From positions 1-56,640 of IMG/VR virus record IMGVR_UViG_3300020056_001798: DNA of 56,640 nucleotides. One strand, given 5' to 3'. Made by a program: the position numbers and the translations under genes. Position 1 is the first letter of the stretch. Each line of letters begins with the position of its first letter. The notes under the pieces were generated by a model, which was given only the letters and a program-made list of their open reading frames with translations, was not told the origin of the DNA and did no database searches. Source of the DNA: a virus (taxonomy: Duplodnaviria; Caudoviricetes). Below, piece by piece: positions 38,564 to 43,084 of this stretch.

Positions 38564-38784
38564 GAACTATCGTAGACAACAAAGCAATACTCACAAACAC
38601 CAATAGTGGTGTAAGTGCAGAAGCAGAAGCAGACAATTTTCAAGAAGGTAAGTCTTTTGACGCATTTCTTGCAACCAATAAAATTCCAATGCGCTGGAAT
38701 GGGCGTACCTATGTAGGTAATGCACACGGTATGGAATTTACCTCAGAAGGTCCTACAGTACGTTATATTAAGGAGGGACGCTAA
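38560..38784 (+). CDS. hypothetical protein
   Basis: Translationally coupled at both ends. Confidence 0.65.
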
Positions 38785-39401
38785 TGCCACTAGTACCAAT
38801 GGTTGTTGAGCAAGAAGCTCGCGGAGAACGTTCATACGACATTTATAGTCGTTTGATGAAAGATCGTATTGTAATGCTGAACGGTCCAGTAGAAGATAAT
38901 ATGGCTAATCTAATTGTAGCACAGTTGTTGTTCCTAGAGTCAGAAAATCCTGATAAGTCTATTAATTTGTACATTAACTCACCTGGCGGCGCAGTAACAG
39001 CAGGACTTGCTATTTACGATACAATGCAGTATATTAAATGTCCTGTGCGAACTATTGTAATGGGCCAGGCCTGCTCAATGGGATCATTCTTGGCACAGGC
39101 AGGTACTGCTGGAATGCGAATTGTATTGCCTGAAAGCCGTACAATGATTCATCGTGTTAGTTCAGGCACACCAGGCACAAGTGGATCTGTACACGTACAA
39201 GAACTACAGTTTGAAGATGCAAAACGTCATTACGAAGAGTCACAAAAGGTCAATAAACGTCTTACAGAACTTTATGTAAAGCACAACACAAAAGGTAAGA
39301 CATATGAAGAATTATTTGAAACAATGAAATTTGATACATTCTTAACTGCACAAGAAGCTGTTGATAACGGTTTCGCAGATAAGGTAGTAGAGAGTAGATA
39401 G
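38784..39401 (+). CDS. clpP: Clp protease proteolytic subunit
   Basis: [23 protein letters not shown] (Ser), MIH (His) and FDTFL (Asp). Confidence 0.95.
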
Positions 39402-40496: not shown

Positions 40497-40506
40497 GAGC
40501 TGCCAA

Positions 40507-41133
40507 TTGGACAACAATTTTACATATAGGCAGATCAATCTGGCGCCACCACAAATGGCAAACTGGATAGAAGAAAGAATTATCCATAATGGATTATGGG
40601 TATTCAATGAAGTAACTAGTAGTGTAGGTGAAAACGTTGATGCTAACGATCAAAACATTTTAGAAACACATCAATTTACAAACACCTACTTTACTCAAGA
40701 AGAAGGCCCCGGACATAACCTTTTTGGCGAAATTGCACAACCATTGTTGTGGATGCTAGAAAAAGAAACAGGTTTGGTAGTCGATGGTTTAGTTAGAATA
40801 AAAGCCAATTTATTAAATCAACATCCGGAATTTACAAAAGACAATTACCATATTCCACATATTGATCACGGAAGTAATCATTGTGTAAGTATGGTGTATT
40901 ATGTGAACGAAAGTGACGGCGATACAAGATTGTTTGATCATTATGTAGAGGATGGCCCTTTTGATATGAAAATGATACATTCGAACACTCCGAAAAAGGG
41001 TAATGCATTATTTTTTCAAAGTCATAGATTCCACGCAAGTAGTAATCCTGTGGATTCTAAATCAAGATGCATTATTAATTTTGTATTTTCTGTCACCCCA
41101 AACTCATTAGAACAGTTTTTAGCAAAAGGCTAG
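40507..41133 (+). CDS. 2OG-Fe(II) oxygenase
   Basis: PHID, YYVNESDGDT, HASS and R.IINF motifs. Confidence 0.85.
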   Translation: MDNNFTYRQINLAPPQMANWIEERIIHNGLWVFNEVTSSVGENVDANDQNILETHQFTNTYFTQEEGPGHNLFGEIAQPLLWMLEKETGLVVDGLVRIKANLLNQHPEFTKDNYHIPHIDHGSNHCVSMVYYVNESDGDTRLFDHYVEDGPFDMKMIHSNTPKKGNALFFQSHRFHASSNPVDSKSRCIINFVFSVTPNSLEQFLAKG

Positions 41134-41145
41134 GATAAGTAAAGT

Positions 41146-41220
41146 ATGAATACTTGTCCAGAATGTAAGACAGAGTTAGGACATAACGATTGGTGTCCTA
41201 ACTGTAAAGTAAGAAGATAA
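41146..41220 (+). CDS. 24-aa zinc-ribbon microprotein MNTCPECKTELGHNDWCPNCKVRR
   Basis: Two CPxC motifs; TAAGTA-4 nt-ATG. Confidence 0.6.
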   Translation: MNTCPECKTELGHNDWCPNCKVRR

Positions 41221-41221
41221 C

Positions 41222-41296
41222 GCCGGTTTAGCACAGTGGTAGTGCAACGGTTTTGTAAACCGTAGGTCGGGAGTTCGAATCTCTCAACCGGCACCA
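41222..41296 (+). tRNA. tRNA-Thr(UGU)
   Basis: Full cloverleaf, ACGGT-TTTGTAA-ACCGT anticodon arm, TTCGAAT loop, encoded CCA. Confidence 0.97.
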
Positions 41297-41337
41297 TTTT
41301 ATAAATACAGCATAGTCGGAAAACAGGAGCAAGCAAA

Positions 41338-41721
41338 ATGGCTTACTCAGACAAAGTAATCGATCACTATGAAAATCCAAGAAATGTAGGCAAGTGGGAT
41401 CCAGACACCGACGGTGTAGGTACTGGTATGGTAGGCGCACCTGCTTGCGGTGATGTGATGCGACTGCAAATTAAAGTAAACGATGATGGTATAATTGAAG
41501 ATGCAAAATTTAAAACTTATGGTTGTGGTAGTGCTATTGCTAGTTCTAGTCTTCTTACCGAATGGGTCAAAGGAAAAAGTCTTGAAGACGCCGGGCGTAT
41601 CCGTAATACAGAAATAGCTCAAGAGCTTGCATTACCTCCAGTAAAAATACATTGTTCTGTTCTAGCAGAAGATGCAATCAAAGCAGCTATAAATGATTAC
41701 AAAGACAAACACAGTAAATAA
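41338..41721 (+). CDS. iscU: Fe-S cluster scaffold IscU
   Basis: YSDKVIDHYENPRNVG, APACGDVM, GCGSAIASS and LPPVKIHCS. Confidence 0.97.
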   Translation: MAYSDKVIDHYENPRNVGKWDPDTDGVGTGMVGAPACGDVMRLQIKVNDDGIIEDAKFKTYGCGSAIASSSLLTEWVKGKSLEDAGRIRNTEIAQELALPPVKIHCSVLAEDAIKAAINDYKDKHSK

Positions 41722-41731
41722 ATACTTTACA

Positions 41732-41896
41732 ATGTTTAAAGCAGTCAAGGAAATTATTTGGCACTTAACTTGCAGTAGTTGCAAAGGCTACTTTACTTTT
41801 GCAACGATGGAAGACAAATATTGTATAGATAGAGCAACCTTCCATTGTCCACATTGCGGAACTAAAGCAAAATGTGAAAAAGTGGTTGACAAATAA
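41732..41896 (+). CDS. small zinc-ribbon protein
   Basis: MFKAVKE start; CSSC and CPHC. Confidence 0.7.
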   Translation: MFKAVKEIIWHLTCSSCKGYFTFATMEDKYCIDRATFHCPHCGTKAKCEKVVDK

Positions 41897-41914
41897 ATAC
41901 AAAGAAGTTATAGT
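41886..41914 (+). promoter_or_regulatory. sigma70 promoter of the leader-tRNA unit
   Basis: TTGACA-17 nt-TATAGT. Confidence 0.85.
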
Positions 41915-41943
41915 AAGTATATAAACTAAGAAGGAATAGATAC

Positions 41944-42006
41944 GTGATTAAGACTAACACAACAAATATTACTTGTTGGCCTCCGAAAGAAAGGGGTATG
42001 TCTTAA
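41944..42006 (+). CDS. putative attenuator leader peptide MIKTNTTNITCWPPKERGMS
   Basis: SD AAGGA 8 nt before GTG; TGT-TGG at 41974-41979. Confidence 0.75.
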   Translation: MIKTNTTNITCWPPKERGMS

Positions 42007-42035
42007 CACGACTTTTGAAAAAAGTTATTTTAGAT

Positions 42036-42069
42036 AAGCCCCTAGCATTAAGTTGTTAGGGGCTTTTTT
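42036..42069 (+). terminator. attenuator intrinsic terminator
   Basis: 12-bp stem AAGCCCCTAGCA/TGTTAGGGGCTT with a T6 tract ending 1 nt before tRNA-Trp. Confidence 0.88.
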
Positions 42070-42143
42070 ATGGGTGTGGTGTAATGGTAACACGTCAGTC
42101 TCCAAAACTGAAAATAGGGGTTCGATTCCCTTCACCTATGCCA
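42070..42143 (+). tRNA. tRNA-Trp(CCA)
   Basis: ATGGGTG/CACCTAT acceptor stem, G73, CCA; anticodon arm TCAGT-CTCCAAA-ACTGA. Confidence 0.95.
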
Positions 42144-42148
42144 ATTTT

Positions 42149-42222
42149 GTGAGCGTGGCGGAATGGTTACGCAGAGGATTGCAAATCCTTGTATGTGAGT
42201 TCGATTCTCACCGCTCACTCCA
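42149..42222 (+). tRNA. tRNA-Cys(GCA)
   Basis: GTGAGCG/CGCTCAC acceptor stem, U73, CCA; anticodon loop TTGCAAA. Confidence 0.96.
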
Positions 42223-42320
42223 CTAAGTTGTTGATTTTGTTACAAATCATAATGGTTGACACAATAGCAAATCCTTGCTATAATATATACATAAATTAGG
42301 CAAATACATAGGCACAAAAG

Positions 42321-42839
42321 ATGGCAAATACTTGGGTAATAAGCGATACACACTTCAACCACGCTGGTATCCTTACGTTCAAAGATTATGCAGGTAAGCC
42401 CCCAAGGGTTTTTGATTCTGTAGAGCAAATGAACGAGTGTATGCTTGATAACTGGGCGAGTGTTGTTAAATCAGGTGATACAGTTATCCACTGCGGTGAT
42501 GTTCTTTTTGGTATGGACAAGGTTGAGTGGTTAGAAGCAAACTTTGCTAAACTGCCTGGCAAGAAAAGACTTGTGCTAGGTAACCACGATAACGTAAAGT
42601 TCCTTGCTCCGTTCTTCAAAGACATTCAGCTTTGGATTGACACTATTCCAGGCTTGATTTTTACACACACTCCTTTGCACCCAACTACACTTGCCGAAAG
42701 GCACAGATGGGGCGATGAGCCAATGTTGAATGTACACGGACACATCCACAGCAATCCTTCACCAGAAGGTCCGTTCAAATGTGTTTGTGTAGAGCAAATC
42801 AATTTTACACCAATCAACGTTGAGGAGTTGACAGTATGA
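42321..42839 (+). CDS. calcineurin-like metallophosphoesterase
   Basis: SDTHF, GD, GNHD, TH.P and HGHIH motifs. Confidence 0.9.
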   Translation: MANTWVISDTHFNHAGILTFKDYAGKPPRVFDSVEQMNECMLDNWASVVKSGDTVIHCGDVLFGMDKVEWLEANFAKLPGKKRLVLGNHDNVKFLAPFFKDIQLWIDTIPGLIFTHTPLHPTTLAERHRWGDEPMLNVHGHIHSNPSPEGPFKCVCVEQINFTPINVEELTV

Positions 42840-43084
42840 GTAAGTATAAACAAAAGTACTTGAAACCCTCAGCGTTTGATCCAAAAGGACATTGGATGGT
42901 CGGCATCGTATGGCCCGTTGAAGGTTCAAAGGGTAATACATACGGTGTCGAACTTCACGACCAAGGTTTTGAATGTGAGTGTACTGGTTTTTCTTTTCAC
43001 GGTAAATGTAAACATTCTACAGCAGTAGATAAGCAAATTAAGGAGGCAATAAATGGCCAAGTTCCAGAATACGAATGGGTATAG
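42836..43084 (+). CDS. SWIM zinc-finger protein
   Basis: GSKGNTY.V...CEC.GF...CKH. Confidence 0.8.
   Translation: MSKYKQKYLKPSAFDPKGHWMVGIVWPVEGSKGNTYGVELHDQGFECECTGFSFHGKCKHSTAVDKQIKEAINGQVPEYEWV

Follow-up and report, generated by a model that had tools for sequence, protein, structure and literature searches.

Why bacteriophages carry tRNA genes, and how these genes are regulated, are old open questions. In the portion of the literature that we searched, phage tRNA genes are treated as constitutively expressed cargo, and a short region ahead of two tRNA genes in a large, uncultured marine phage of the class Caudoviricetes raises the question of whether their transcription might be conditional. 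The region belongs to IMG/VR record IMGVR_UViG_3300020056_001798, all 56,640 bases of which are referred to here as the window. Between positions 41886 and 42222 the window holds, on the plus strand, a promoter, a short open reading frame (ORF), an intrinsic terminator and the genes for tRNA-Trp and tRNA-Cys. We consider it likely, on comparison with related loci, that this element is a ribosome-mediated (leader-peptide) transcription attenuator of the phage's own tRNA-Trp-headed tRNA operon, and that the phage probably makes the tRNAs of this operon only when decoding of their codons slows. An earlier reading made from the letters of the window alone (the sequence-only reading) had proposed attenuation here, and its proposal is supported by the conservation of the leader, the terminator and both alternative helices, and by the tracking of operon tRNAs by leader codons. 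The parts of the unit, their conservation, the alternative pairings and the match of codons to tRNAs are all established by comparison of sequences.

The unit opens with a sigma-70-type promoter (TTGACA and TATAGT with a 17-nt spacer; 41886–41914) that matches the consensus at 11 of 12 positions. Promoter-like sites as a class are not enriched in the surrounding region (16 between 39000 and 46000, compared to 19.5 expected from shuffles). The Shine-Dalgarno (SD) motif AAGGA (41931–41935) lies 8 nt upstream of the GTG that starts the leader ORF MIKTNTTNITCWPPKERGMS, which has 20 codons and ends in a TAA stop (41944–42006). Adjacent TGT (Cys) and TGG (Trp) codons, each the only one of its kind in the ORF, occupy 41974–41979. 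Segment 1 (41943–41954) includes the start codon and pairs with 42000–42010. Segment 2 (41992–42010) has the stop codon inside it; its bases 42000–42010 pair with segment 1, while 41992–42003 pair with segment 3 to form the antiterminator. Segment 3 (42032–42047) consists of the 5' arm of the terminator and four bases upstream, and its partner is either segment 2 or segment 4. The intrinsic terminator (42036–42069) has a 12-pair stem (42036–42065) with a 6-nt loop, and its six T residues (42064–42069) abut the tRNA-Trp gene. This gene (anticodon CCA; 42070–42143; Rfam 68.3 bits) is the first of the operon and is followed after 5 nt by the second, tRNA-Cys (GCA; 42149–42222; 63.5 bits). The sequence-only reading had listed the promoter, the SD motif, the GTG-started ORF, the codon pair, the 12-bp stem with its T run and the two tRNA genes, all of them present and at the coordinates it gave, and the three overlapping helices it drew were also recovered, helix 1:2 and the terminator when 41921–42075 was folded and the pairing of 41992–42003 with 42032–42043 when 41990–42047 was folded.

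From this arrangement we infer that the leader is translated, in which direction the switch would act and what might trigger it. Transcription would start from the promoter at 41886–41914 and a ribosome would load on the nascent leader. Where decoding is fast, the ribosome would arrive at the stop codon, inside segment 2, and mask that segment as segments 3 and 4 are synthesised; segment 2 would re-pair with segment 1 after release. Segment 3, left free, would then pair with segment 4 to form the terminator, and transcription would end at the T run, one base ahead of tRNA-Trp. A ribosome waiting at the Trp codon, or within about ten codons upstream or two downstream of it, would leave segment 2 exposed to capture segment 3 as it emerges, so that no terminator would form and the operon would be transcribed. 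Since the codons at which the ribosome would wait are those read by the operon's tRNAs, the outcome would be negative feedback on the supply of exactly these tRNAs. The trigger could be the loss or dilution of host tRNAs during infection, their cleavage by defence nucleases, or a lack of charging. A role for defence nucleases is speculation, albeit consistent with recent work on phage tRNAs as presented in its abstracts.

Relatives of the unit were collected by three routes: the downstream phosphoesterase gave 73 viral loci, two patterns derived from the leader gave 101 and 10 further viral stretches, and a looser leader pattern gave at least 118 metagenome stretches. Counts for the leader unit cover the matches listed, that is, 244 matches to the 3' motif of the leader in viral and metagenome contigs, the window included. 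Eleven of these are cut at the 5' end, 15 are cut at the 3' end or have no downstream tRNA called, and two lack an ORF reaching the motif (L302, in which a TAG stands just ahead of the Trp codon, and L234, for which the automatic caller gave no candidate ORF); 216 were scored. The same unit is kept in more than 200 related loci, comprising promoter, SD motif, an ORF of 17–24 codons, the helix joining start and stop, antiterminator, terminator and tRNA-Trp. Among the matches listed, a Trp codon is present in 216 of 216 leaders, and in 214 of 216 the first gene called downstream is tRNA-Trp. The two exceptions are L128, where ARAGORN missed a first-placed tRNA-Trp that can be seen by eye, and L296, where the order is Cys-Trp. 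The leader ORF is kept in 231 of the 233 instances with enough 5' sequence, always in frame, with an SD-like motif upstream of 226 of the 231, and the stop codon falls within segment 2 in 205 of 209 instances. A −35/−10 pair with a spacer of 16–17 nt lies 23–38 nt upstream of the start codon in 87 of 99 distinct upstream regions of relatives.

The leaders fall into three lineages: a main lineage (..C-W-P-P.. or ..W-C-P-P.. with ..R/G-G-M-S), a second (MTT..HICIRWFSEG..) and a third (MNTKYTNNYEWCGCEPPGGVL). The alternative helices, the leader and the terminator are conserved across all three, diverged as they are. Leader Pro codons vary synonymously (CCA 113, CCG 31, CCT 20, CCC 2), and no excess of change at the third codon position was seen in the leaders; positions 1, 2 and 3 vary about equally, and hence the leader peptide is not conserved as a protein. 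Four frame variants (L203, L229, L263 and L292) have one base more or fewer near the G run, with a second in-frame stop 5 or 13 nt later.

Folding and covariation both bear on the alternative pairings. The fold of 41921–42075 contains helix 1:2 and the terminator and is more stable than any of 200 shuffles (−44.9 kcal/mol, z −5.3). With the 5' part and the 3' arm of the terminator removed, the partial fold of 41990–42047 contains the antiterminator (−18.4 kcal/mol, z −3.9); taken separately, helix 1:2, antiterminator and terminator have energies of −20.9, −18.4 and −20.8 kcal/mol. An alignment of 56 main-lineage leaders was compared with controls in which partners were slid or sequences shuffled. 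The helices of the terminated state are 90.6% paired, against 32–51% when slid, and contain 11 two-sided pair changes compared to 6.1 (sd 1.2) in shuffles, none of 500 being as high. The first base of the start codon covaries with the base after the stop (AU in 40, GC in 16): ATG leaders carry ..CAT.. past the stop, and GTG leaders ..CGC/CAC... The terminator has five covarying pairs. A further hairpin inside the ORF (41960–41978, with 41960–41965 pairing to 41973–41978) contains the Cys codon and two bases of the Trp codon; four of its six pairs change on both sides, and a role as a pause signal is possible.

The antiterminator is 90.3% paired in the main lineage, against 25–65% when slid, and its variation there is mostly one-sided and compatible with wobble. 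In the other lineages the terminator arm differs and segment 2 has changed to match it, GGCAGGAGUGUGUC pairing with ACACACCCCUGC and CCGGGGGU with ACCCCCGG; this rebuilt pairing is the best support that sequence comparison offers for the proposed antiterminator, whose mean duplex energy is −15.9 kcal/mol over 64 leaders. A small A/U hairpin (ACUUUU/AAAAGU, 42011–42025) nested in the antiterminator loop is conserved in sequence, without covariation. Covariation in relatives, which the sequence-only reading had put forward as a check on its helices, was thus found at the start pair of helix 1:2 and in the terminator, and is slight for the antiterminator within the main lineage, where only three pairs change on both sides.

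The relationship between leader codons and operon tRNAs was scored for tight clusters (tRNAs no more than 30 nt apart), both by amino acid and by strict wobble, with shuffled pairings of leaders and operons as the baseline. In a first set of 61 distinct pairs, 102 of 102 non-Trp tRNAs have their amino acid in the leader (shuffles 85.9, sd 2.8, maximum 96), and for 96 of the 102 a strictly readable codon is present. Across all main-lineage loci (103 distinct pairs) the match is 158/159 by amino acid, compared to 136.8 in shuffles (sd 3.4, maximum 148, 0 of 5000 as high), and 153/159 by strict wobble, compared to a shuffle mean of 124.9 (sd 4.1). Forty-four held-out leaders, which the metagenome scan listed for the first time, match at 65/65 by amino acid and by codon (shuffles 56.2, maximum 63). 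The second lineage matches at 42/42 by amino acid and 40/42 by strict wobble; one of its leaders, MTTMMKHIQQYCIRWF, precedes tRNAs in the order Trp-Ile-Tyr-Lys-Gln-Cys-Met-Arg-Phe-His, and in L179 the ten downstream tRNAs between them serve every one of thirteen residues, MMKHIQQYCIRWF. Second-lineage leaders L179 and L184, both with tRNA-Tyr, have a Tyr codon, which L066 and L073, both without, lack. L182 has the Tyr codon with no tRNA-Tyr called, and a gap of 87 nt where L179 has its tRNA-Tyr. Stretches as long as the leaders, taken from long ORFs of the same loci, cover only 53.9 (sd 4.6) of the 102 tRNAs that the leaders cover in full, and contain a Trp codon in 16.8 of 61 cases as against 61 of 61, so general phage codon usage is not the explanation.

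The association can be followed for individual codons. Cys codons occur in 52/53 leaders with tRNA-Cys in the operon and 32/50 without, codons for tRNA-Ser(UGA) in 16/17 and 42/86, Gln codons in 13/13 and 43/90, and Tyr codons in 5/5 and 48/98. ATA is present in 16/16 leaders with a tRNA of anticodon UAU or CAU, compared to 16/87 without. The CAU tRNA itself goes with ATA codons (10/10 vs 22/93), ATG accompanies it in the sensor window in 0/10 cases, and it is probably an Ile2-type tRNA. At L014:2826-2919 and other loci, ARAGORN calls a 'tRNA-Ile(tat)' of 94 nt with anticodon UAU, unusually long for tRNA-Ile. Independent pairs taken from a tree of the flanks, built with the sensor window excluded, change in the same rather than the opposite direction for Cys (4.5/0), Ser (3.9/0.1), Gln (3.6/0), ATA (5.7/0) and Tyr (1.5/0). 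Correspondence of codon and anticodon, on which the sequence-only reading had staked itself, accordingly holds in the homologs, for Trp in 216/216 and for the other tRNAs in 158/159, 65/65 and 42/42.

The position of the matching codons is informative. Matches are enriched only at offsets −8 to +2 from the Trp codon (z up to 6.1); offsets +3 to +8, which fall in the paired RNA, show no enrichment. Counted from the T that opens TGG, pairing in segment 2 begins at a median distance of 12 nt, and a ribosome with TGG in its A site reaches about as far, some 12 nt. A stall at Trp or upstream of it would therefore leave segment 2 free and a stall from +3 onwards would cover it, in agreement with where codon matching ends. 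Seen in this way, the TGT-TGG pair of the window is the 3' end of a sensor window that in relatives spans approximately codons −8 to +2 around Trp. The sequence-only reading had taken Cys-Trp to be the sensor; Trp is indeed invariant, and the sensor is wider, made of single codons that reflect the tRNAs of the operon. Cys belongs to it as one such codon, near-constant where tRNA-Cys is present, and is not universal. We lean towards the view that the leader is an evolvable 'codon test strip', in which a tRNA's entry into the Trp-headed operon is accompanied by a codon for it in a sensor window of about ten codons; the phage would in this way gauge, one codon at a time, whether the cell still decodes what the operon can supply, and would transcribe replacements only on demand.

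The arrangement is specific to clusters headed by tRNA-Trp. Of 76 Trp-headed clusters, 74 have a strong hairpin followed by a T run in the 125 nt upstream, compared to 3 of 152 clusters with other heads (Thr, Ser, Gly, Leu, Asn, Glu and Arg) in the same loci, and one of those three is the missed tRNA-Trp of L128. Within the Trp operon's surroundings, most tRNAs lying behind gaps of at least 42 nt have no counterpart in the leader (12/23 by strict codon), and the codons for tRNAs past a gap of approximately 45 nt after the Trp operon are mostly missing from it.

Several loci depart from the layout of the window. Gaps of 42–50 nt stand ahead of Glu-Arg, Arg or Ala tRNAs in L009, L012, L033, L084, L096, L111 and L132, and in L139 (the same contig as L020) the gap between tRNA-Trp and tRNA-Arg contains a consensus promoter of its own, the one case seen. 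A conserved insert of 70–95 nt, absent from the window, separates the terminator from tRNA-Trp at L012:1006-1097, in L009, L016, L033 and L039, and in approximately 20 more. It bears long terminal inverted repeats (ACTACACTA...TAGTGTAGT), and this hairpin of about 90 nt matched no Rfam family at the gathering threshold; a small mobile hairpin element and an additional signal for processing are both candidates. In L176:1340-2230, and also in L180, L181 and L183 (the same contigs as L062–L065), tRNA-Trp is split by an insertion of about 770 nt, with the 3' half just upstream of tRNA-Ile. The insertion has an opposite-strand ORF of 284 amino acids that is Cys-rich and contains an HNH-like stretch; in L176 no Rfam family was found for it at the gathering threshold, and it may be an intron or a homing-endonuclease insertion.

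Four metatranscriptome runs (X15–X18, as low-depth assembled contigs) gave pieces over 41300–42900, in which the flanks, the tRNAs and part of the leader are represented at a depth of approximately 2–30. Contigs of X15 and X16 have loose ends at 42064, with a relative's terminator sequence continuing into tRNA-Trp; such contigs show neither ends, strand nor level. None of the contigs covers the bin 42002–42055, and carry-over of DNA is possible.

A number of observations weigh against attenuation or against the codon test strip. One mechanical detail of the sequence-only reading had to be given up: it held that a stalled ribosome covers segment 1, when the footprint of a ribosome (about 30 nt) whose A site holds TGT or TGG extends over approximately 41956–41989 and does not take in 41943–41954. 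Segment 1 is hence uncovered during a stall at Trp, and helix 1:2 could compete with the antiterminator. Helix 1:2 also sequesters the start codon, so that the ribosome would have to load within about 55 nt of transcription. Two-sided covariation of the antiterminator in the main lineage is slight, 25 of 500 shuffles being as high as the three pairs observed, and the hairpin inside the ORF ties codons −5 and −1 by pairing, which confounds some codon changes. The sensor codons occur once or twice each, where classical attenuators have runs. Pro codons are not associated with tRNA-Pro (38/44 vs 50/59; tree-aware pairs 0.8/2.7), and GGA or GGG with tRNA-Gly(UCC) scores 0/3 by strict wobble, matching at the amino-acid level only. 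Tracking runs one way, in that an operon tRNA nearly always has its codon in the leader and a leader codon need not have its tRNA; many leaders keep Cys and Pro codons without tRNA-Cys or tRNA-Pro, for example MSQTNTTYITCWPPSGGMS ahead of tRNA-Trp alone. L296 has tRNA-Cys and no Cys codon. Contrasts between sister leaders, from 37 non-independent pairs, are noisy (12 concordant and 8 discordant of 87 differences). Most leaders have C, P, S and Q in common, which raises the shuffle baselines, and the rows are interrelated. Finally, in L302 the TAG replaces a Tyr codon immediately ahead of Trp; this, like the four frame variants, may be a natural variant or a homopolymer assembly error.

Could simpler explanations account for the locus? 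It is unlikely that the unit is merely a small peptide gene with a leaky terminator, with termination indifferent to whether the ORF is translated and the tRNAs transcribed either from elsewhere or by partial readthrough that is constitutive. Leaky terminators are frequent in phage genomes, a promoter, ORF and terminator alone would fit a short independent transcription unit, and 12 of the 99 upstream regions have no recognisable promoter. Such a unit leaves unexplained why the stop codon sits inside a segment complementary both to the start region and to the terminator arm, why leader codons follow the tRNA content of the operon, and why the terminator is confined to Trp-headed clusters, and the equal variation of codon positions 1, 2 and 3 speaks against a conserved peptide. 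We give a very small probability to the view that the region is a structured small RNA or a processing or stability element, with an incidental ORF and either a trans-acting terminated transcript of approximately 145 nt or a hairpin that guides 5' maturation of tRNA-Trp. The region does fold strongly (z −5.3), and attenuator RNAs with trans functions are known in Sinorhizobium (PMC6614838). The reading frame nevertheless survives insertions and deletions at 17–24 codons with constant SD spacing, Pro codons vary synonymously and leader codons track tRNA content; the 70–95 nt insert that parts terminator from tRNA-Trp in many relatives indicates that abutment is not needed for processing. A role in trans could in any case coexist with attenuation.

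Arrest by the nascent peptide is also quite unlikely. Here Trp followed by Pro-Pro or Cys-Pro would stall the ribosome, either by way of the exit tunnel or because Pro-Pro bonds form slowly, and the leader would report free tryptophan or EF-P activity in place of tRNA supply. The invariance of Trp (216/216) fits this, as does Pro at +1 or +2 in most main-lineage leaders, with or without tRNA-Pro. We take the ..HICIRWF.. of the second lineage to resemble the TnaC core KWFNID, but its spacing and C-terminus do not fit, which makes TnaC likeness a minor rival. The residues past Trp vary by lineage (WPP, WCPP, WF, WCGC) and the second lineage has no Pro-Pro. A ribosome held at Pro-Pro would moreover cover the GGGG core of segment 2 and so favour termination, and arrest leaves the tracking of Cys, Ser, Gln, Tyr and ATA unexplained. 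TnaC itself acts through Rho and free tryptophan and has Pro at its last codon at a fixed spacing from Trp. TnaC-type peptides share with the phage leader a short ORF with an essential Trp; the phage leader differs in its intrinsic terminator, variable C-terminus and codon tracking. Set against the TnaC motif, the leaders end in GMS, GLS, GVL or GSC with 5–10 codons from Trp to stop, and do not show that motif.

Attenuation of the tRNA operon by its leader, which we prefer, has clear counterparts among known systems. Leaders of proteobacterial amino-acid operons (trpL, hisL, pheL, thrL, leuL, ilv) likewise have a promoter-proximal short ORF with an SD motif, regulatory codons, helices 1:2, 2:3 and 3:4, an intrinsic terminator just ahead of the regulated genes, and a stop codon at which a terminating ribosome sits over segment 2. 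The folding energies presumably also come close to trp-leader values, the antiterminator being less stable than the terminator. The phage element is distinct in being borne by a phage and in having tRNA genes as its output, in place of biosynthetic enzymes. Its sensor has one or two codons each for up to ten amino acids, matching the operon tRNAs, in contrast to a run of one amino acid's codons, and its segment 1 holds the start codon and not the sensor codons, unlike that of the trp leader. The usual marks of an attenuator were found, namely a short ORF with a ribosome-binding site, an adjacent intrinsic terminator, an exclusive antiterminator 3' of the codons, a 1:2 helix and cognate codons (Pro excepted), apart from tandem runs of regulatory codons, in whose place stand single codons for many amino acids. 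The pheST/thrS type of control (the pheM leader) is a case of an attenuator over a component of the decoding machinery; its product is a synthetase, and that of the phage element the tRNAs themselves.

T-box riboswitches similarly sense tRNA status and control an intrinsic terminator through an antiterminator. They bind uncharged tRNA directly, are untranslated, and regulate aminoacyl-tRNA synthetase and amino-acid genes, in contrast to the phage leader with its SD motif and ORF. A search of 40500–43000 with cmscan at E up to 1 returned three tRNAs only, with no curated Rfam leader family and no T-box; given this, a leader of approximately 145 nt and an SD motif with a frame-conserved ORF, a T-box was rejected. 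E. coli pheU/pheV, considered as a possible precedent for an attenuator-like leader ahead of tRNA genes, were rejected too: in K-12 a promoter lies directly upstream of each of the two, and neither an ORF nor a terminator is present. In its proposed working the element resembles the trp, his and phe leaders; it stands outside every curated family, and differs in output and sensor design.

Phage tRNAs have been presented as a counter to host defences that target tRNAs (PMC10264068, PMC11555353, PMC11464382), which supplies a reason for on-demand phage tRNAs. The parts of these papers that we consulted deal with which tRNAs phages carry and how cleavage is escaped, and describe no leader regulation; the text of PMC10264068 contains no mention of attenuation, leader, terminator or promoter, and another paper on phage tRNAs likewise mentions no attenuation, leader or terminator. 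In the main texts searched, few of them from subscription journals, no description of a leader-peptide attenuator ahead of tRNA genes was found, so that an older report is possible. The element would be the first attenuator with tRNA genes as its output.

The source record of 56,640 bases has a CheckV completeness of 18% and is a fragment of a large phage. No close cultured relative was found, the best of 50,697 phage records matching the NifU-like gene only, at 75.6% DNA identity; the best match to the DNA ligase is 34.5% identical. The unit is flanked by genes for ClpP, a NifU-like protein, a 2OG-Fe(II) oxygenase, a metallophosphoesterase, an ATP-dependent DNA ligase and dCMP deaminase, which are ordinary phage cargo. 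Of these, the ClpP protease gene (38784–39401; Pfam E 4e-64) and that for the NifU/IscU-like Fe-S scaffold protein (41338–41721; E 2.7e-53) lie near the phage tRNA genes. A perfect sigma-70 promoter (12/12, with an extended TG; 42256–42284) lies 34 nt past tRNA-Cys and drives the metallophosphoesterase gene (42321–42839); together with the promoter at 41886–41914, the tRNA operon is thus bracketed by two consensus promoters. A zinc-ribbon-like ORF of 24 codons, MNTCPECKTELGHNDWCPNCKVRR, at 41146–41220 has its stop one base ahead of tRNA-Thr(UGU) (41222–41296); no terminator separates the two, and so the arrangement is unlike the proposed attenuator ahead of tRNA-Trp.

If this account is correct, large marine and estuarine phages of at least one widespread group regulate their tRNA supply by gauging the speed of decoding, and the demand for phage tRNAs becomes directly testable. 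Classical attenuation would be extended to tRNA genes as output and to many different single codons as sensor, and a natural element of approximately 180 nt that reports the availability of chosen tRNAs would be a compact synthetic part. It would also provide a search rule for all phage and bacterial genomes, in which short ORFs with a terminator ahead of tRNA clusters are sought and their codons compared with the anticodons downstream. For the phages themselves, the leader would close a direct feedback loop around tRNA supply; it would also be a plausible means, inducible at need, of countering the depletion of host tRNAs or defences that cleave tRNAs.

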